A DNA stretch of 64,000 nt, from contig OX597831.1 in the NCBI GenBank assembly GCA_951406725.2, positions 81,282,001 to 81,346,000 of the forward strand, read 5' to 3'. The translations under genes and the position numbers were made by a program. The notes under the pieces were generated by a model. The model saw only the letters and a list, made by a program, of their open reading frames with translations, was not told where the DNA came from and made no database searches. Position 1 is the first letter of the stretch, and each line of letters begins with the position of its first letter. Source of the DNA: Octopus vulgaris. Lineage: Eukaryota. Shown here piece by piece: positions 2,370 to 61,648 of this stretch.

Positions 2370-3056
2370 CCAAGGAAAAACCAAGCCACAGGCATTGGAT
2401 TTCTTGGAAAGAGGGTCGAATGTATACGGAACAAAGACAGGATGCCACACGAATATAAATACAAGAAACAAAAATATATATAAAAAACACGAAGGTGGAC
2501 AGTACAAGGACAGGAGCGTCTTACGACTTTAGACAATTTTTAACTTATCTTGGCTGGCGTATATGAAAAAAGCCTTCAACGGCAAAAACGAAAACAACGT
2601 GAGCGTGGCCGCGGTCAGGCCGAAATGACCAGTTTGAACGCGGTCACGGGAGAGCACGGAAGAAAGAGAAAGAAAAAAGAAAGGCAGGGAGCAAGGAATC
2701 AAAGAGAGAGGGAAAGAAAGGGACGAAGGCACCAGGGGAGAGAGAGAGAGAGAAGGGAGTAATAAGAGAGGGGAGAAGAAACAGGATTGGCACAGCAATA
2801 GAAATAACGGTGCAAATAAGGTGGGGGAAGAATCAGAGGCAAGAAAAGAGAAAGACACATACTATAGAGAGAGAGTGTGTAAAGACGTCGTACAAGGTAA
2901 AAATGTGTAGTATACATAGGAGATAGGGGTACGTAACGCCGCAATAATATATGTATAGAAATTAAATATAAAATATAAATTACAAAGTGGGACAAGAACG
3001 CAAAAACACACAAGGAGACGACACAAAAAAACAGACGGGTCACTCGAAGCCTCTAA

Positions 3057-3129
3057 TCTTCAGTCGGGAACCGGATCATCTTAGTAATTTCGGCTGTTTA
3101 ATCTCGATATTACTCCGACCCGGCCAGCC
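3057..3129 (-). ncRNA. Rearranged hammerhead-like RNA motif (copy 2)
   Basis: Same sequence as 2297-2369, in the second terminal repeat. Confidence 0.65.
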
Positions 3130-3170
3130 CCAAGGAAAAACCAAGCCACAGGCATTGGATTTCTTGGAAA

Positions 3171-5425
<2,255 letters not shown>

Positions 5426-6642: not shown

Positions 6643-6935
6643 AAAGACGAAACAAAAGTGGAACACGAACGTATCTGGCGACAACAAAAACATCCGGACA
6701 ATTAAACGATAAAAAAAGGACAGGTAAAATCAATGATAGCTTTCTATCGTCAGTCGAGTTTCAGATCGTCGTTACAGTTTCGGCCGGTTACACTCGTGAC
6801 TACTCCAATCTGGCGGGCCTCAAGAAAATCTAAGATAAGAACACTAGATTCTTGGGAAGAAAGCAGGCGAATGTAAACGAAAAGAAGGACGAAAAATGCA
6901 GAATTACAAGTACAAATAACAGGACATTAACAACA
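6643..6935 (-). mobile_element. Diverged copy of the 2202-2530 retrozyme-like unit
   Basis: Colinear similarity (acaaaagtgggaacacgaacg..., ..ctagattcttgggaagaaagc..gaatgtaaacga); left end at (TA)n. Confidence 0.6.
6747..6819 (-). ncRNA. Rearranged hammerhead-like RNA motif (copy 3, diverged)
   Basis: GGCC-cgc-CAGAUUG-ga-GUAGU-C-ACGAGU-guaacc-GGCC-GAA-ACUGU-aacga-CGAUCUG-aa-ACUCGA-CUGACGA, with compensatory changes relative to copy 1. Confidence 0.65.
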
Positions 6936-20440: not shown

Positions 20441-23400
20441 TAAAGGAAAAATAACATGTGGTGCATGGTGAGGCTGTCAAAATAAAAACACACACGAAGA
20501 TTACAAAATCTCAGTTTATGAGAAACATAAGTTTTCATGGAAACTCTAATGAACAGAGTAAATGAGGTTGGACCTTTAAGGGAAGGTCTTCGCTCGGAAG
20601 TGGTTCAGCACAAATACACACACACCTCAGGTATGATTCTAAGACAGCGTAAGTATATAATAGAGTAAGGAGACTGAACTAGACACGTGAAGAGAACAGG
20701 GTAGTGATGCATTGCTACTTGGAAACGTACGGGGTTACAGGAAACGTACGTTAGCACTTTGGGTAGATTAAAGTGGATGTTTGAAGTAACAGAGCAGAGA
20801 CAGTGAACCAGACGAATGCAATTAGGAGAAATAGGTGGATGACAGAATTGGAGGGAAAGAAATCACAAGAGAAATGAAAACGAGGGAGCAGGAAGTAGAA
20901 GAGTCGAACAACATATGTGATACAGTTCAAACAAAAGAAGAGGCTAGAAGCACTACGAACAGAGAAGGGGAAGTTGATACCAGCGAATTAAGTGAGGAAG
21001 ATCAGAAGATTTTAGAGGAGTTGCAGGAAGAAAAATATTACCGGTATTAAAAGATGTCAATAGAAGGAAGTTACTAGATTCTGTTATCAATAGGATAGAT
21101 ACTAAAAATATAGGTGACACTAACTTATTGATCTATGCAGGAGGGTTAGTAGTTACTGGAAGATTAGGTATTCCGCAAAGAAAAAATAGGAAGGAGCAAA
21201 TGTGGGGGAAGGAGATTAGAAAATAATGTGAAGACTTTAAGACAAGATCTGAGTAAAATAAAAACCCAGAAACACAAAAGTTAAATCTCTTGAGAAAAAG
21301 TATTTAATTAAAGAGAAAGGATTTGGGAAAGTCATTGAAGAGGTGAAACAACGTATCATAGCAATATCAAGTAAGCATTCCAGATATCAGAAAATAACAG
21401 AGAAGTATCAACAGAACAGATTACTTGAGACAGATCAGAGGAGATTTTATAACCAAATAAATAGTGTATAAGGAAGTACTAAAGGTTAGAAGCCTAATGC
21501 AGAAGAAGCTAGAAAGTTCTGGAGTAATATTTGGGATAAACCAGGTAATCATAATGGAGATGCAGCATGGTTAAAGAAAGTGAGGGAAGAAGTAGTGAGT
21601 GAGAAGCAACCAGATCTAAGACTAACTTATGCATTAATAAGTAAAATGTTATGGAAAATGCCGAATTGGAAAGGCCCAATACCAGATTTAGTTCAAAGGT
21701 ACTTGTTAGAGAAATTTAGAAGCTTACATGGGAGGCTGAGGGAACAACTTCAAGATTGCCTTAATGGAGGAATGATATCAGATTGGATGACTAGAGGGAA
21801 AATAGTAGTCCTTATGAAAGACAAAACAAGTGCAATAAAGCACGTAGTTATAGACTAATCACTTGCTTACCATTGGAGTGGAAATTGCTCTCAGAAAGTA
21901 TTTACGTGCAACCTGACAGCCTTAATTTACTACCAGAAGAACAGATAAGTTGTAGAACGAAGGATAGAGGTACGCACGATCTATATTACATAGACAAAGC
22001 AGCTCTAAAAGAAGTGAAATCTAGAAGGAAAAGTTTAACAATAGATAAGAAAGCCTATGACATGATTGCACCCCATGGATAAGTGAAAGTTTGAGTATGT
22101 TCAGTATAGCAGACAACATAAGAGAATTAATAAGCTATAGCATGAAGAAATGGAAAGCGGATCTCTTCTCAGGTGACACACTTTTAAGCAAAGTTAATAT
22201 CAAGACAGGAATTTTCCAAGAAGTCTCGTTGTATCCTTCAAAATTTGCTTTTACATTTAATCCTCCTCAGGTTAGCGTAAGAAAGAAGAAGGCAGCATAT
22301 CCGTTTAGAGATAATAGAGGAACAATTAACCATTTGCCCTACATGGATGATCAGAAGTTTTTTAGTAAGAAAAGTAAAAAGATAGATTACTTAATACAGA
22401 CTGCAAGACTTTTCAGCAAAGATATAGGCATGGAATTTGGCAGAGATAAGTGCGCAATATTAGTCATAAAAAGGGACAAGGTGTCAGCAGTGAAGCAATC
22501 CAGTGAAGGAACCCATTGAAAGAAGGAGTTATAAGTATCTAGGAGTATTAGAATATGAGAGAGCACCAATTGCAGAAATGAAAACGAAAATTGAGAAGGA
22601 GTACATCAGAAGGGTGAGGAAGCAAATGAAGTCAAAGCTAAATGGTCCGAATCTAGGGAAGGCTGTAAATACTTGGGCACTATCATTACTTAGATACTCA
22701 GCAGCTTTTGTAGATTGGACAAAAACTAAATTAGAGACAGAAGAACTAGGAAGGAATTCAATATGAATGGAGGACTCCACCCAAGGACAGGAGTAGCAAG
22801 ATTATACCTACCTAGAAAGTAAGGTGGGAGAGGTTTAATATCAGTAGAAGACGGCATGGAGTTAGCTACAACAGATATAGCCTCCTGTGTAGGTAATGGT
22901 AGAGAAAGTTTATTAAGAGCTGCTAGAGTAACAGTAGGACATAGAGAAACCCAAAAGCCAAATGAAGTTAAAAACCAAAAAAAAAAAAAAGAAAATAAAT
23001 ATCTGACTGGCAAAAGATTCCCAAAGGTAGTTGCTGGAAATTGTAAAAGGGAGACATGATTATAGTTGCAGAAAGGAAGGCTGACAAGGGAGACAGCAAG
23101 TTTGTTAGTAGCAACATAGGATCAAGCATTGAAGACTAATTGGATAAAAGCCAAGAAAGTTAAAAACCGGGTAAATATCCAATGTAGGTTATGTAAATCA
23201 AAAGCGGTGTTACTCATGTAGTAAGTGAATGTAGCATGCTGGCTGGGAAAGAAACAAGAAAAGAGATGACGATCTGCGGAGAGCAATGCATTGGGAGTTA
23301 TGTAGAAAGCTAGGATTTGACCAATAAAGGATACGAACACAAAAACCAGTAAAGTACTCGAAAGTAAGAAATATAAGATGTTGTGGGACTTTAACATTCA

Positions 23401-32174: not shown

Positions 32175-33611
32175 CACTGAACCGCAAAAGATTTTTCAGG
32201 TGTCATTTTTATATGGAAATTCATTTCGGGGATGTAAGTGTAAATATTCCAAGGCCTACTGGTTTACGGCTGAGACCCAAATTGCGGCTAACCTTTTAAC
32301 GAGACGCCAAAATGCAGCTGCGTTGAATGTCGTGGGTGTCAGTCGTAAACAGTTGTCATCGAAACCGAAATGCATGTGCATTTCGTGGAGGTTATGGGTA
32401 TAAAAATCAACGCGACCCGCGTTCTTGGCATTTGTAATTTGGATGCATCAGGTATGACCCGATTGTCAGCAGCGCAGAGAGAACAAGCTATCGGCCAATT
32501 GCAAGCAGGGCAGCGCGCCCTGATTGTTGCGAATGCTTCTAATGTCCATGTCAGCACCATCTATCGCCTGCAACAGCGACACAACAACACCAGCAGCACT
32601 GCAGACCGTGCCCACAGAAGGCGCCCCCGGGTAACCACACCCAGGTAGGACCGCTTCATCCACCTGCAACACCTCCGTAATTGCTTCAGACTGGCCAGCG
32701 TGAGAGCTTCGCGAGACCATTGGCACTGGACAGCGACCCATCAGCGACGACACAGTACGACGTCGACTGGCCGCCAACGTCGTCCTGCTCGAGGGCCTGT
32801 CTTCACCGCCCGCCACCATGAGGCACGACTACAGTGCGCTACACAGCACCGAGTCGTCTCTGGCGAGAGCTGGTACTGAGTTTCCACCTAGGGTGGCAGA
32901 GTGAGGGTGTGGTGAAGGAAGGGGAGAGCTACAGAGACGCATGTGTCATGGAGCGAGACGCGTGGGCTGGCCAAAGCATCATGGCTTAGGATGCTATAGG
33001 CCTGAATCAGAGAATAGGGTCCCATGTGTTCCAAGATGTTGGTGCAAGCAGAGGGAATGACATCACATACGTTGACCAGATCGTGCCCTTCTTCGCGCGT
33101 CACCATAGCCATGTGTTCCAGCAGGACAATGTTCCCTCCCACACGGCTGGGTTCACCATGGACTTTCTGCGTCAGCACAACATCAGAACCACGTCGTAGC
33201 CGGGTCTCAGCCCGGATTTGAAACCAATTGAACACTTGTGGGATGAAATCCAGAGACGGCTGAACCAGGGGGTCCCAAGGCCAACAACTCATGTGGAACT
33301 GAAGGCAGCTTTCCTCAGGGTGTGGACATAGGGGCCAATGGCTTTTGTGAACCGTCTCATGCACTCCATGTACCGACGGTGTATGGCTGTTTTGAACACC
33401 CAGGGAGGGCATACACGGTATTGAACATTGCGCCCTACAATCTCGATGTGCTGGATCCGCCCACAACCAGAACACATGACAACGACCCATAGACTGTCGC
33501 CAAAGTGCATCCAAGAAATTGACTTTATCAAAGTTATCAAGATTTATCTCTGACATAATCAAAACATATTTCACAGTCACACACGTCACGCGTTTCATCT
33601 GTGGTTCGGTG
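32175..33611 (+). mobile_element. Tc1-family DNA transposon, decayed
   Basis: Left end TA|CACTGAACCGCAAAAGA and an imperfect inverted right end ..TCTGTGGTTCGGTG; ~1.44 kb; contains a broken transposase. Confidence 0.85.
32454..33424 (+). pseudogene. Tc1-like transposase pseudogene
   Basis: MTRLSAAQREQAIGQLQAG (HTH), RPRVTTPR*DRFI, FQQDN, SPDLKPIEHLWDEI and terminal GGHTRY*, with stops and frameshifts. Confidence 0.85.
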
Positions 33612-43647: not shown

Positions 43648-44657
<1,010 letters not shown>

Positions 44658-45499: not shown

Positions 45500-46442
45500 T
45501 GCAGGAAATAAATACTGCATAAGTCATTCACTGCAGTAGTTTACGCCGGTTTATTTGCCGACGATGTCAAACTGGTCGCTCCTCGCAGTGATATAGATGA
45601 TCTTCGTCGATGCCTCCACCAAGTTTGGAGATGGTCAAACGAATGGGACCTGTGTCTGAACGTGTCAAAGTGCTGTCATCTGCCTGTTGGCTCCTTTCCT
45701 GCAACTCAACTTGATTTCGAGCCGGGTCGTCTGCTGCTGGAGAAGACCGACCAAGTAAAGGATCTGGGTATCTTGGTGGATTCTTCCTCTCGCCTTCGGC
45801 CCAATGCGTCCATGCTGCCAACTAAGCACGCGGAGTTCTGTTTTTGATTCGACGGTCATTCGGAATGCTCACAGCAGCCATATTCCTACCGCTCTATGTC
45901 ACGCTGGTGAGACCCATATTGGAGTACGGGATTCAAACCTCTTCTCCTTATCTCCTCAAAGACATACATAATCTCGAAAGAGTCCAGAAGCTGGCTACCC
46001 GCATGGTTCTTGGTCTCAAGCATTTGTCTTATGACGAAATTCTGAAGACGCTCGACTTTTATTCTCTCGAAAAACGACGACGACGTGGTGATCTCATTCT
46101 CGCTCACAACATCATAAGCAGAAAGTGTAACCTCTCGAAAGAGCTGTTCTTCACTCCTGCTCCAGAGCGTGGGCTGCGGGGTCACTTCGAAAAGCTCTAT
46201 CTACGACGATTTCATCTCAATCGAAGGAGAGGGGCTTTCTCCGTCCGGGGTGCTGATCCGTGGAATAAGCTGCCGGACGAGATAGTGAAGATGCCGACGT
46301 CCGTTCGGTTCAAAGTCTCTCTTGACCTCAAATGGCCTGAACTCTTTGTATGACCACCCTCCCTGTACATAATTCCCTGTCCCCCTACATGGCCTTGCTT
46401 TTTGAGCCAATAAAAATTGAATTGAATTGAATTGAATTGAAT

Positions 46443-46446: not shown

Positions 46447-46487
<41 letters not shown>

Positions 46488-46490
46488 ACT

Positions 46491-46765
46491 GATATCCAAT
46501 CTACAGTGGAGAAGGCTAGCCACTGGATTTGGTTAAAAAGAGACGATGAGCGATGGCTAGAAGTATATTGAGTTCTTCATAACCAGCTGATCTAGCAAGC
46601 GGGGCCTCATATCAGTGAGCGGGGCCGGTGCGCATCGATGCCGTCGAGAGGTAGGCCCTGAAACGGCGCGCATTCTCTCCTGATGACCCCATACACTTGC
46701 TAGCTTCCGATATACGGAGCTTTTAACTAGTAGCACTTGCATGTGCAAGTTGTTTGCAAGACATC
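46491..46765 (+). mobile_element. 3' end of an RLE-type non-LTR element (HERO-like)
   Basis: ORF terminus DIQSTVEKASHWIWLKRDDERWLEVY* (46491-46571) resembles HERO C-termini as I recall them. It is followed by a GC-rich structured 3' UTR. Confidence 0.6.
46621..46686 (+). ncRNA. Rearranged hammerhead-like RNA motif (compact copy in LINE 3' UTR)
   Basis: GGGGCC-g-GUGCGC-aucgau-GCCGU-C-GAGAGG-ua-GGCCCU-GAA-ACGGC-GCGCAU-UCUCUC-CUGAUGA; all four stems pair fully. Confidence 0.75.
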
Positions 46766-47929: not shown

Positions 47930-48475
47930 ACAAAATCAAAATAAACAACATGATATCAGGAGGTGATTCAGTACGACCGTTTCAAGCGTCTCCATTTCAT
48001 TGAACAATGCAATCATTATATCAATTTAAATGCAGTGCTATCTTCAGCTGCATAAATAAATAGGATTTTTTAATCAGTTAGATGCATTAATATAATTTTA
48101 CTCAAATTCTCTAATAGAGCGAGAAGAGGGAGAAAGTCCATGTTGCTATTAATGTGACTCAGAATATACGACCCGAATCACATTAATAGCAACATTGACT
48201 TTCTCCCTCTTCTCGCTCTATTAGAGAATTTGAGTAAAATTATATTAATGCGTCCAACTGATTAAAAAATTATATTTATTTATGCAGCTGAGGATAGCCC
48301 TGCATTTAAATTGATGTAATGATTGCATTGGTCAGTTGAATGGAGCTGCTTGAAGCAGTCGTACTGCATCACCGTTTGATATCCTGTTGCTTATTCACCT
48401 TACTTTGAGTTGTACGAATACTACCGCACTAACTTGGTGCTTCAACTTAAGTATCCAATTCAACTGAATCTCAAT
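47930..48475. mobile_element. ~450-bp foldback, family H2, with a hammerhead in each arm
   Basis: Arms ~47940-48160 and 48175-48396. Hammerheads at 47966-48053 (minus: CUGAAGA..GAAACGGUCGUA) and 48282-48369 (plus: CUGAGGA..GAAGCAGUCGUA). Confidence 0.8.
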
Positions 48476-54305: not shown

Positions 54306-54489
54306 ATGAGTGAGAGTATTTATTTGTTTCATAAAACATTGTTTTTCTGTGCATTTTTAGAATTCCGTTCACGTCGAGGCACTCATTTAATGTCTGTCCA
54401 AAGCAGACGAACTCATTCATCGCTTCCTTCCACTTTTCGGCTTCCACTTTTCACACCGCTTATGTCTTATTTTTATGCAGTCTATTACG

Positions 54490-55345
54490 AGGTCTGAGGA
54501 GCTGGCAGACCTCGTCACCCGCCCCACATCACCATTGCCGAAACAGAACTGAAGTCGGTACAGCAGTTCACTTATCTTGGATGTACAATCTCTTCAGATG
54601 CATGCATCAACAAAGAAATTGGCAACAGACTTGCAAAGGTAAACAAAGCATTTGGCAGACTATGTGGGACAACAAGCATCTTAAGACAAACGCAAAAGTC
54701 AGCGTCTTCCGGGTCGTCGTTTTCACGATGCTCCTATATGGCTCCGAGTCCTGGGTCCCCTACCGCTGTCATCCAAGGTTCCTTGAACATTTTAATCAAT
54801 GTTGCCTCAGTATTTTCCTCAATATTTACCGGAGTGACTATTTCATCAACGCTGAGGTCCTCGAGCGAGCAAAGATCAGCAGCCTGGAAGCCATTTTACT
54901 TGAGACACGACTACGTTGGGCAGGACACGTTGACAGGATGAAAGACCACCGCCTACCCAAGATCATCATGCACGGTGAAATCACCACTGGCCACCGCAAC
55001 AGGGGCATCAAAGAAGCGTTACAAGGACTGCCTGGAGCAGTTCCTTAGCGTTTGTGACATTGATTATCGTGAGTGTTCCACTCTAACAGCTGACCGTGTT
55101 GCTTGATGCCATACCATCAGCGATGTTGTTTCCTTCTTTGAGATCGCTCGCAGTGCCACTCTTGAAGACAAACGCCAGAGGCGAAAAAATAATGCAGTTG
55201 CATCATCAGACCCTGCACAACCATACCCCTGTCATCACTGAAATCGGTTATGTCGATCCCACATCGGCCTTATCAGCCACGAACGAGTGTACAGACGAAC
55301 GAGTGTACAGCCTTCTTAATCTTCGTCAGCGAAGCAATGCCAAGA
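54490..55345 (+). mobile_element. RTE-clade LINE 3' fragment
   Basis: FTYLGCTIS, EIGNRLAK..KAFGRL, LLYGSESW, RLRWAGHVDRM, RLPKIIMHGE and a terminal zinc-finger relic CRSHIGLISH. Confidence 0.88.
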
Positions 55346-57116: not shown

Positions 57117-57393
57117 GGTGTAGGTATGGTTGTGTGGTTGTTCCGGGTTCAGTCCTATTGTGTCAGAAACGTCACAAACGCTAAGGAACTGCTCCAGGCA
57201 GTCCTTGTACCGCTTCTTTGATGCCCCTGTTGCAGTGGCCAGTGGTGATCTCACCGTGCATGATGATCTTGGGTGGGCGGTGGTCTTTCATCCTGTCAAC
57301 GTGTCCTGCCCAACGTAGTCGTGTCTCAAGTAAAATGGCTTCCAGGCTGCTGATCTTCTACTATAGCGTGGTGTGTGTGTGTGTTTGTGTGTA

Positions 57394-59414: not shown

Positions 59415-59897
59415 TAATAATCATAGTAATAATGAGCAACAAAAAGAGCGTAAGAAATGTTGAACTGTTTAGTAAAAGCAATTTGAAGAGATGAAGCTGT
59501 TGTGTTGAGTAGATTGTACCGAATGATTGAGTGCAAGTGACATGTTTATAAGTGGAGGTGGGGAGGTGGTGAAGCGTGAGTGTGAGTGGAAACTTGACAA
59601 CTATTTTAACATAATTACATCCAACTTTTATAACTATTTTGAAATGAAAACGCTGCTATTGTAGCTGTTGCTGTTATTGTTGTTGAGGCACAGGTCAGCC
59701 ATGTTAGAACATGGCTTTTGATCATGTCTTTTTCTTTCCAGCTCTGACCATCTGATTGTCGTCATTGCTTCAACTCAGGTCAGCCGTACTTGATCAGGTC
59801 TGCATATAATCAAAGACCTTCCGGGCTATGGCCATCCCATATTTTATATGCCAGGGATAATCATGCTCCAATATACCTCTTTCTCACTCCCTCTCTC

Positions 59898-59967
<70 letters not shown>

Positions 59968-59969
<2 letters not shown>

Positions 59970-61648
59970 ATAGTGTCGAGTCAAAGGCACATCGACCTGG
60001 TCGGCGAGACACTAAAAGAATACGAAGCCGTAACGGGAGCAAAAATTAACCGGGAAAAGTTAGTGGGCTTGCGGCTCGGCACCTGGAGAAGCAAGCCCAT
60101 GCCGTTCACCAGCATCTCCATCGTGGGACACTGGACCGACGAACCGGTTAAATTGCTCGGAGTCTGGTTCGGTCCGGACCTCCAAATGGGGTAGAACTGG
60201 GGCGAAATAACGACTAGGGTGGGTACTCTCACCCAGCAATGGGCTGAGAGGAAGCTATCCCTAAAAGGTCGGGCGGAGGTGGCGAACGCGTACATCGCAT
60301 CCGTCATCGAGTAGTGCCTGACCGTCGTGCCTTGTCCCGACCCTACCATCACCAAACTGGAACGCATACTCTTCCGCTTCCTGTGGAAGGGAAGCGTTCC
60401 GATGGTTAGGCGATCCAAATGCTGTCAACACCCGCTAAATGGAGGGCTAGGCATGCCGTGGTTGATGATGCGCAGACATGCGCTGAGACTGCGACATCTC
60501 CGGCGCTTCATAGACGATGGTGAACAGGTGTGGCCGCCTTTTGTACGACGCGCTTTCCCGCAGCTCGTCTCCTTGGCCGAACTACAATCGTGGATCAAAC
60601 AGAGACCGAGGCTAGGCGAATGGCACCGCGAGTGTCGCGTTGCTCTCAAGCAACTCTGCCGTCCGGGATCAAACTTGTGCGACTCTATCACAACAAAGCA
60701 TTCTATAGAGGATTAATGGAGGGGAGGTGCGACGACGTTCTCGGGCAGAATCTGGGCGTCGACGAGAGACACCTGACCCGCCTGTTCAGGACAACTTTCG
60801 GGCCGGGACCTATGGACATTCACCAAAGATCTCTGGCCTGGCAGTGCTATCGAGAAGCATTAACTGTTCGGGATAAGGTCTACAGGCACGGCTCGAGACA
60901 CACTGGACCGACCTGCCCGAGATGCGGTCAGAGCGACGAAACCGTTCTGCACGCACTCGTGCAGTGTCCATCCATTTCGGACCTGTGGACTTATGCCGAA
61001 CGGCTGCTGTCACGTGTGGTACGAGTCCGCCTGTCGGTCGAGTCTATCGTGGAAATTGCACCCCTCTCCCTCAACCGGGAAGGCAAGGCAGTCTTCATTG
61101 TACTGGTGGCTATGGTGAAAGAATGTATGTGGTGGACTCGAGCGAAAGGATTAGAGACAAACACTTACCTCTATGGCCAATCGGTCATGAACTTTTTTAA
61201 GTACCACTTGAAAAGGAAGGTGAGAATGGAAAGGCAAGTTTTGTCTCGTGAAAGATTCAAAAAAGATGGGTGAATGTTGCAAAGATGGTGCGTGCGAGTA
61301 ACGAAACAATTTTGAGCATGATCCTGTAGATCGTAAAAAAGAAAGAAAGAGAGCATTTTTGACCTCATGTGTTTATTTCCTCCCTGACTGGGGTTCCCGT
61401 GGTCTTTTCTGTAGGCTTTTCTCCCCACGGATGAACCTAATCTTGTTTGTTACTTTGGAAAAAAAAATTTCCTTCTGTGATACATGATCCCTTTTGATCG
61501 TTCTTTTTTTTCTTCTGATCCTTTTTGATCGAAATTTTAGATTTGTTTCCTTTTTTTCTTTCTTTTTCCTTTTCCATCACCGAAAAGAAAAGCTCTACAT
61601 TTGTAATTGTTCCCTCTGTGTCCAGCCCTGAGTGGCCAATAAAGAAAG
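59968..61648 (+). mobile_element. Tx1/L1-clade LINE, 5'-truncated, inside (TCTA)n
   Basis: YEAVTGAKINREK, VKLLGVWF, LSLKGRAEVAN, FLWKG, GGLGMP and CCHC CPRCGQSDETVLHALVQC. The T-rich 3' UTR ends AATAAAGAAAG. Confidence 0.88.

Follow-up and report, generated by a model that had tools for sequence, protein, structure and literature searches.

The hammerhead ribozyme has been described as an assembly of three blocks, S, G and C, each of which was assumed to be uninterruptible, and full-length constructs of the permuted types SGC and CSG were shown to cleave in vitro at rates of 0.004–0.13 per min (Eckert et al., 2023, PMC10085705). The published SGC examples came from metatranscriptomes and those of CSG from two environmental DNA sequences, and the same text notes that the bridging helix joins stem III by a link so short that it is hard to fit on the crystal structure (PMC10085705). 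The canonical type I hammerheads of Penelope-like elements and of animal retrozymes lie in pseudo-LTRs and in non-autonomous tandem derivatives; their blocks follow the circular order C-G-S, the stems meet in a three-way junction and the core is free of pseudoknots (PMC4209133; bioRxiv 10.64898/2026.07.22.740005). For a Poseidon element it is reported that cleavage needed the protein of the element and was not required for insertion in vitro, and that no RNA ends were seen at the hammerhead site (PMC11167929). Naiads prefer (TA)n, form partial tandems and were reported to be without canonical hammerheads; only 'core' and 'half core' hammerhead matches are listed for them, which are left unexplained (Craig et al., 2021, PMC8557442), and the retrozyme preprint, in its accessible portion, names Naiads only as a clade (bioRxiv 10.64898/2026.07.22.740005). 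One further element bears on what follows, the standard k-turn, which consists of a 3-nt bulge followed by G-A and A-G pairs (PMC4382518).

Order of the parts in the window copies

The window analysed here is a 64,000-nt stretch of the Octopus vulgaris genome that is rich in microsatellites, with broken retrotransposon frames and no long genes. It holds three copies of one retroelement tail, A1, A2 and B (Table 1), and in all of them every base of the hammerhead core is present. A1 and A2 (A, where they are treated as one) form a partial tandem, like a pseudo-LTR; B is homologous to A with an E value of about 1e-12 and is covered by 273 and 379 contigs of two public runs at no less than 80% likeness. 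The (TA)n target, the 5′ truncation and the partial tandem are Naiad-like traits that are not exclusive to Naiads (member C, described below, also adjoins (TA)n). No remnant of a Naiad protein, i.e., an ORF with GIY-YIG, CxC and DKA, was found in the window, so that we only infer the Naiad membership of A and B, in all likelihood Naiad-type insertions that were truncated or are non-autonomous, with B a decayed copy. A 2.1-kb stretch of 16% G+C at 3176–5248, bounded by terminal inverted repeats of 47 nt and internally duplicated over ~740 nt, starts at the point where copy A1 is truncated.

Read 5′ to 3′, the parts of the motif follow the order Y5′-Z-II5′-X5′-III3′/UH/I5′-II3′/GAAA/III5′-X3′-I3′/CUGAnGA-Y3′. 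The blocks come as S-G-C, a non-circular arrangement, and the circular orders CGS, GSC and SCG of types I, II and III are not found in the window motif. Published type SGC has the 5′ strand of stem II 0–2 nt after CUGAnGA; a strand in that place would form at most one pair in A, B and C, and in B the first 12 nt downstream of A9 hold no contiguous stem II partner. In the window copies this 5′ strand of stem II lies directly before the 5′ strand of helix X, as at the 3′ end of SGC-1, and since it is absent after CUGAnGA and present upstream of X, the cycle of types SGC and CSG appears to be opened between A9 and G10.1. It is quite probable that the motif is a hammerhead ribozyme in the 3′ UTR or pseudo-LTR of a retroelement, with its cycle opened at this point. 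HDV-like, twister-sister and pistol folds were considered for A and B by eye and dropped, since the full hammerhead core fits. The whole window gave no Rfam match at gathering scores, with only microsatellite noise near B.

With type SGC (HRIMA-1) and type CSG the motif has in common the cyclic order S-G-C, the core, the bridging helix and a short link between this helix and stem III; there, too, the bridging helix comes after the 5′ strand of stem II and before the 3′ strand of stem I. Unlike in those types, block C is split at A9/G10.1, the chain passes in and out through helix Y with hairpin Z, X and stem III are connected by both strands (here as a predicted k-turn) and the motif is located in animal genomic retroelements. 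The circular order, three-way junction and pseudoknot-free core of canonical type I hammerheads likewise set these apart from the motif, although their location in pseudo-LTRs is shared. The point of opening may tolerate insertions, which fits the single extra base that occurs there in SGC-1 and in the consensus Naiad_Asuum. A viroid hammerhead reportedly carries an extra A at the same spot, and hammerheads with additional helices are said to have been described by Weinberg and colleagues in 2015. A break between A9 and G10.1 was found in no published hammerhead, and neither the split-core form nor permuted hammerheads in Naiads are described in the literature searched, subscription papers being mostly outside it; a word search of the accessible supplement of Eckert et al. 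gave no Acropora entry (PMC10085705).

Table 1. Positions within the window of the retroelement copies, of member C and of their predicted parts.
Feature	Position	Strand	Details
Copy B	6643–6935	−	Retroelement tail of ~290 nt, 5′-truncated; 3′ end (TA)n, 5′ end (CA)n; motif 6819–6747
B, candidate helix Y and hairpin Z	6737–6846	−	Y ~6846–6838 with 6745–6737; Z just 5′ of G10.1
B, stem II 5′ strand	6815–6819	−	G10.1 = 6819; upstream of all other parts; partner 6786–6782
B, helix X 5′ strand	6806–6813	−	Bridges stem I and stem II; partner 6768–6761
B, predicted k-turn, X to stem III	6769–6805	−	Bulge 6773–6771; G1b/A2b 6770/6769; A1n/G2n 6804/6805
B, block S	6792–6803	−	Stem III 3′ strand 6803–6799, GUC triplet 6800–6798, stem I 5′ strand 6797–6792
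B, predicted cut	between 6798 and 6797	−	Inside block S
B, block G	6774–6786	−	Stem II 3′ strand, GAAA (6781–6778), stem III 5′ strand
B, stem I 3′ strand and core	6747–6759	−	Stem I 6759–6754, CUGAnGA 6753–6747; no stem II after
Copy A2	2217–2410	−	Architecture as B; motif 2369–2297; G10.1 2369, AUA triplet, core 2303–2297
A2, predicted cut	2348/2347	−	A2 3′ end adjoins (TA)n
Copy A1	2978–3170	−	99.5% identical to A2; 760 nt upstream of A2; motif 3129–3057; predicted cut 3108/3107
Member C	46592–46703	+	Strict match, all stems perfect; sequence unrelated to A/B, order identical
C, helix Y	46601–46604/46687–46690 plus 46592–46599/46696–46703	+	Two-strand fold
C, hairpin Z	46606–46619	+	In two-strand fold
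C, core	G10.1 46621; GAAA 46660; CUGAnGA core 46680–46686	+	
C, predicted cut	46645/46646	+	After GUC
Retrotransposon gene end	46482–46571	+	Last 29 codons and stop; 50 nt upstream of C; inserted after (TA)n

Pairing, variation and a third member

The preliminary description of B, in which compensatory changes relative to A were seen in all four stems, quoted strings that are all present on the minus strand, and GAAA and CUGAnGA are kept with GUC as the triplet of B, just as it stated. The motifs of A and B align without gaps, with 49 of 73 positions identical, and in that register the change from A to B includes one two-sided replacement in stem II (U-A to C-G), one in stem III (A-U to G-C, next to two one-sided changes), one in stem I (A-U to U-A, with one pair gained) and one in helix X, that is accompanied by three one-sided changes and one broken pair. 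Each stem therefore does covary, but the extent was overstated: the helix X strings (CCGGGUC/GAUCCGG and CAGAUUG/CGAUCUG) had been compared one register off, which inflated the covariation of this helix, and three A pairs that are broken in B had been omitted, i.e., 6815/6786 (stem II pair 5), 6813/6761 (the outer X pair) and 6797/6754 (pair 1.1–2.1 beside the predicted cut site). With one two-sided change per stem and three broken pairs, two copies alone are thin evidence. A plain folding program, which cannot form pseudoknots, gave unremarkable energies (z −0.19 for B, −1.55 for A and +1.07 for the third member).

In the letters of B itself stem II has four of five pairs and helix X seven of eight, both becoming complete with the majority contig letters at 6815 and 6761, respectively, and pair 1.1–2.1, which is A/A in B, is U-A in 95% of contig depth. 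In A and C, 5–6 pairs form in each of the three stems that adjoin the core, and likewise in B once the majority letters are taken; the core CUGAnGA, the GAAA and a UH triplet are present in A (AUA), B (GUC) and C (GUC). Helix Y and hairpin Z are clear in member C. In A and B helix Y has defects (7 and 8 pairs, respectively; in B with one mismatch and −5.6 kcal/mol), and hairpin Z is weak and unconvincing in both. The joint between X and stem III is in A and B a standard k-turn by sequence, with the 3b-3n position U-G in A, which is favourable, and C-G in B, which by the published rule would fold poorly in ions alone (PMC4382518). It differs from the standard k-turns of that work in being predicted from sequence alone, as the hinge of a ribozyme.

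The related contigs offer further copies, and the preliminary description had named the frequent breaking of pairs in such copies as the outcome that would speak against the fold. The contig variants over B were examined in 40 of 103 variant rows, including 23 stem rows, with the letters taken unlinked. Counted by row the picture is mixed, 11 of the 23 stem rows keeping and 12 breaking a pair; counted by frequency it favours the fold, because all seven stem variants that reach at least 25% in both runs keep or restore pairing, and the pair-breaking ones stay at or below 21% with one exception (31% and 18%). Five majority changes in stems, at 6761, 6797, 6815, 6774 and 6802, all improve pairing: the first three restore the three broken pairs of B and the other two turn wobble pairs into G-C pairs. 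Some of the breaking letters correspond to the alternative pair found in A, as far as unlinked letters can tell. Among the 40 rows none falls on CUGAnGA, on GAAA or on the four G/A positions of the k-turn, U16.1 varies in 4–5% of contigs, and the third bulge base of the k-turn (6771), with three variant letters, is the most variable position in the contigs. Such a pattern would be expected of copies that decay from a well-paired master.

A structure descriptor was written for the split-core order, with 100 shuffled windows as control, and member C, which had no part in the writing, was found blind. The shuffled windows gave 4 strict matches (0.04 per window), 16 with one mismatch and 1 compact match with one mismatch; the real window gave one strict match (46621–46686, in member C), the three A and B copies at one mismatch and one loose A+T-rich match at 4747–4903, that was counted as chance. 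The frame upstream of C matches the extreme C-terminus of the proteins P0041 and P0042 with 83% over 56% of the query (E 0.004–0.007), with shorter matches down to 3e-7. These proteins carry RVT_1, a weak zf-RVT and a nuclease-like C-terminal part, and by these sequence matches the host of member C is a non-LTR element of another class, not a Penelope-like element; its clade we take to be HERO.

Hammerheads with intact block C were not found in the window at the scan thresholds. Below those thresholds, inspection by eye showed minimal motifs resembling type I hammerheads, such as canonical Penelope-like elements carry, at 43701 (−), 44259 (−), 48047 (−), 50707 (+) and 30632 (−), the one at 48047 lying inside a 456-nt inverted repeat. 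The frames at 21490–22763, 45512–46350, 54335–55045, 59748–61270 and 32349–32645 comprise broken retrotransposon frames, with RVT_1 below cut-off in two and zf-RVT above cut-off in one, and a frame that by appearance is presumably the start of a Tc1-type transposase. The end of a retrotransposon fragment is present as a 190-nt inverted duplication, at 54872–55061 and 57168–57357, with 97% identity.

Related tails in Naiad consensi and metagenomes

The tails of published Naiad consensi were surveyed by eye over the last 420–600 nt of 53 of the 54 sequences (Naiad-1_Movir excluded), as given in File S5 of PMC8557442. In the portion surveyed the split-core order occurs in 11 of the 53 tails (Bfor, 3_Chem, Amil, Aacu, Anas, 2_Movir, Plae, EuTe, Obim, Ovul and Esco), with different stems, in eight sequence groups and five phyla; blemishes comprise one mismatch in stem II of Esco, one each in stems I and II of Aacu and a two-pair stem I in Bfor. 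Six of the eight groups have no stem II partner after A9 in these tails. Helices Y and Z were seen by eye in seven of the eight, less clearly in the Octopus pair, in whose two consensi the joint of X and stem III has the k-turn sequence, as in A and B; in Naiad_EuTe this hinge is 1 nt, which is hard to fit in a monomer. The same survey found type CSG with block C intact in six nematode consensi (1_Nbra, 2_Nbra, 3_Nbra, Hcon, Hpol and Asuum) and type SGC with a short insertion in Naiad_Smim, with Sdum, Ptep and 4_Dst as doubtful SGC; the remaining 32 consensi had none of the three forms in the part surveyed. The layout of the nematode Naiads recurs in both CSG examples published from environmental DNA, which might come from such elements. 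In the tails of bivalve, hemichordate, fish and two Clytia Naiads, within the stretch surveyed, two other conserved structured motifs stand in place of the hammerhead. One of them looks, by eye, like the pistol ribozyme and the other like twister-sister. Naiads share with the window copies the (TA)n targets, the 5′ truncation, the partial tandems and, in the 11 tails, the RNA architecture; the window family differs in having no sequence match to the surveyed consensi and no reading frame in the window.

A metagenome scan, with a pattern that fixed only the core, three stem III pairs and three stem II bases, gave at least 119 loci. Among the matches listed, 41 were candidate loci, from which L036, L108, L116 and L136 were excluded from the alignment as unrelated, and the 37 kept, truncated ones included, form one family near the Acropora Naiad consensus. 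Of the 37, 13 satisfy the descriptor strictly and 25 with one mismatch; of the 99 other pattern matches none and four do so, respectively, and those four (L026, L058, L071 and L130) were rejected, having only the three stem III pairs that the pattern forces. Over 47 pairs, Y and Z included, 90.4% of 1603 cells pair, against 28–45% in slid versions, over which the structure has an advantage because it was derived from the same 37 loci; Y pairs in 90% and Z in 87% of cells. The 37 loci are essentially two subfamilies from three assemblies; their covariation score lies above all 500 shuffles, and the number of two-sided pairs (6) is not above them (194 of 500). The subfamilies differ by three two-sided changes, in Y, X and stem I; stem II has no two-sided change within the 37 loci, and one distal pair of stem III is broken in 24 of 36. 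At L037 a frame for a Naiad-type reverse transcriptase ends 326 nt before the motif; this frame shares 65% identity over 80 aa with P0023, whose N-terminal GIY-YIG, CxC and DKA are marks of Naiads according to PMC8557442. In viral contigs a family-specific pattern matched four times, each within one related, apparently protein-coding stretch without the stems, which was set down to chance; none of the 17 matches of the general pattern there passes the strict descriptor, and a search of the viral contigs with a Naiad protein gave no locus.

Proposed fold, rival readings and meaning

The order of the parts and their pairing potential are conserved across unrelated families. The real, rearranged hammerhead fold put forward in the preliminary description is thus upheld on wider evidence than two copies with about four two-sided changes could offer, and with components that it did not include, namely helices Y and Z, the k-turn, member C and the host elements. 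Judged from the sequences, the motif is a real and conserved RNA structure that in intact copies is probably active as a ribozyme. In the proposed fold, stems I–III would rebuild the normal core, with the cut predicted after H17, and helix X would replace the contact between loop I and loop II. Through the k-turn (here) or a bulge of 5–7 nt (in most others) X, which adjoins stem III at its far end, would bend back within one molecule and reach the distal ends of stems I and II, which is described as hard to fit in PMC10085705. Y would stack on Z and stem II on the core, so as to form, with stem II and the sheared G-A pairs, a four-way junction that may hold the unlinked A9 beside G10.1. In a partial tandem, cutting of a read-through transcript by the upstream copy would set the 5′ end of the element RNA, at a rate low enough that uncut 3′ copies could still be the template; by analogy with other Penelope-like elements, A1 to A2 would yield a 760-nt unit.

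The same core could also be assembled as a domain-swapped dimer, with blocks S and G from one molecule or tandem copy and the 3′ strand of stem I, CUGAnGA and the 5′ strand of stem II from another, X and stem III making a straight bridge. X and III indeed form one long hairpin in the minimum-energy fold, the short link between bridging helix and stem III was flagged as hard to fit (PMC10085705), the hinge of Naiad_EuTe is 1 nt, A is found as a tandem pair, and Penelope-type hammerheads cleave as dimers according to the title of a cited work. This reading is nonetheless unlikely, given that the standard k-turn sequence sits exactly at the hinge in A and B and, by eye, in the two Octopus consensi, that most other families have a 5–7 nt bulge there and that B and C are single copies. 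Very unlikely is an ordinary type SGC with an insertion of 5–6 nt after A9 and the downstream strand as stem II, for which A has a 4-pair match 5 nt after A9, with a similar one in a loose-end consensus from related contigs, and which Naiad_Smim resembles by eye; B and C form at most one pair at any offset of 0–12 nt, six Naiad groups are without the downstream partner, and the upstream strand pairs in all families in the place it has in SGC-1.

A reading that accepts the structure and denies the cut takes the motif as a non-cutting RNA descended from a hammerhead and kept as a binding or priming signal for the reverse transcriptase. The insertions retain the whole motif and extend about 130–155 nt past the predicted cut, so that the RNA that was copied was circular or had not been cut at this site, and the Poseidon insertion in vitro had no need of cleavage (PMC11167929); on the other side, unrelated families and two retroelement classes retain all the catalytic bases and the UH triplet, for which a purely structural signal would have no use, and this alternative is quite unlikely. 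An uncut or circular copied RNA also fits a slow or protein-dependent ribozyme. That two diverged repeats merely carry look-alike motifs by chance is hardly credible and is largely refuted: the unremarkable folding z-scores, the four two-sided changes between A and B and the lack of an Rfam match would agree with it, against which stand the shuffle control, the blind third member, the majority letters, the 37 loci and the published consensi. It is fairly likely that the motif represents a further natural hammerhead topology, in which a four-way junction closes the opening at A9/G10.1 and the cephalopod-type families have a k-turn as hinge, and that it is active and widespread in Naiads of five phyla and was also acquired by a non-LTR retrotransposon of another class.

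If the motif cuts, it breaks the published rule of three unbreakable blocks and, with it, that of only six possible orders. The k-turn or bulge would be a natural answer to the geometry problem of types SGC and CSG, A9/G10.1 would become a new point for splitting or switching a hammerhead, and these claims are testable on RNAs of ~110 nt. Non-circular permutations would no longer be limited to a few environmental sequences but extend to animal genomes, in which covariation is available from hundreds of copies. If true, Naiads would be the main natural home of non-circularly permuted hammerheads, with the split form, CSG in six nematode families and SGC in spiders, and the view of Naiads as elements without hammerheads would be overturned.
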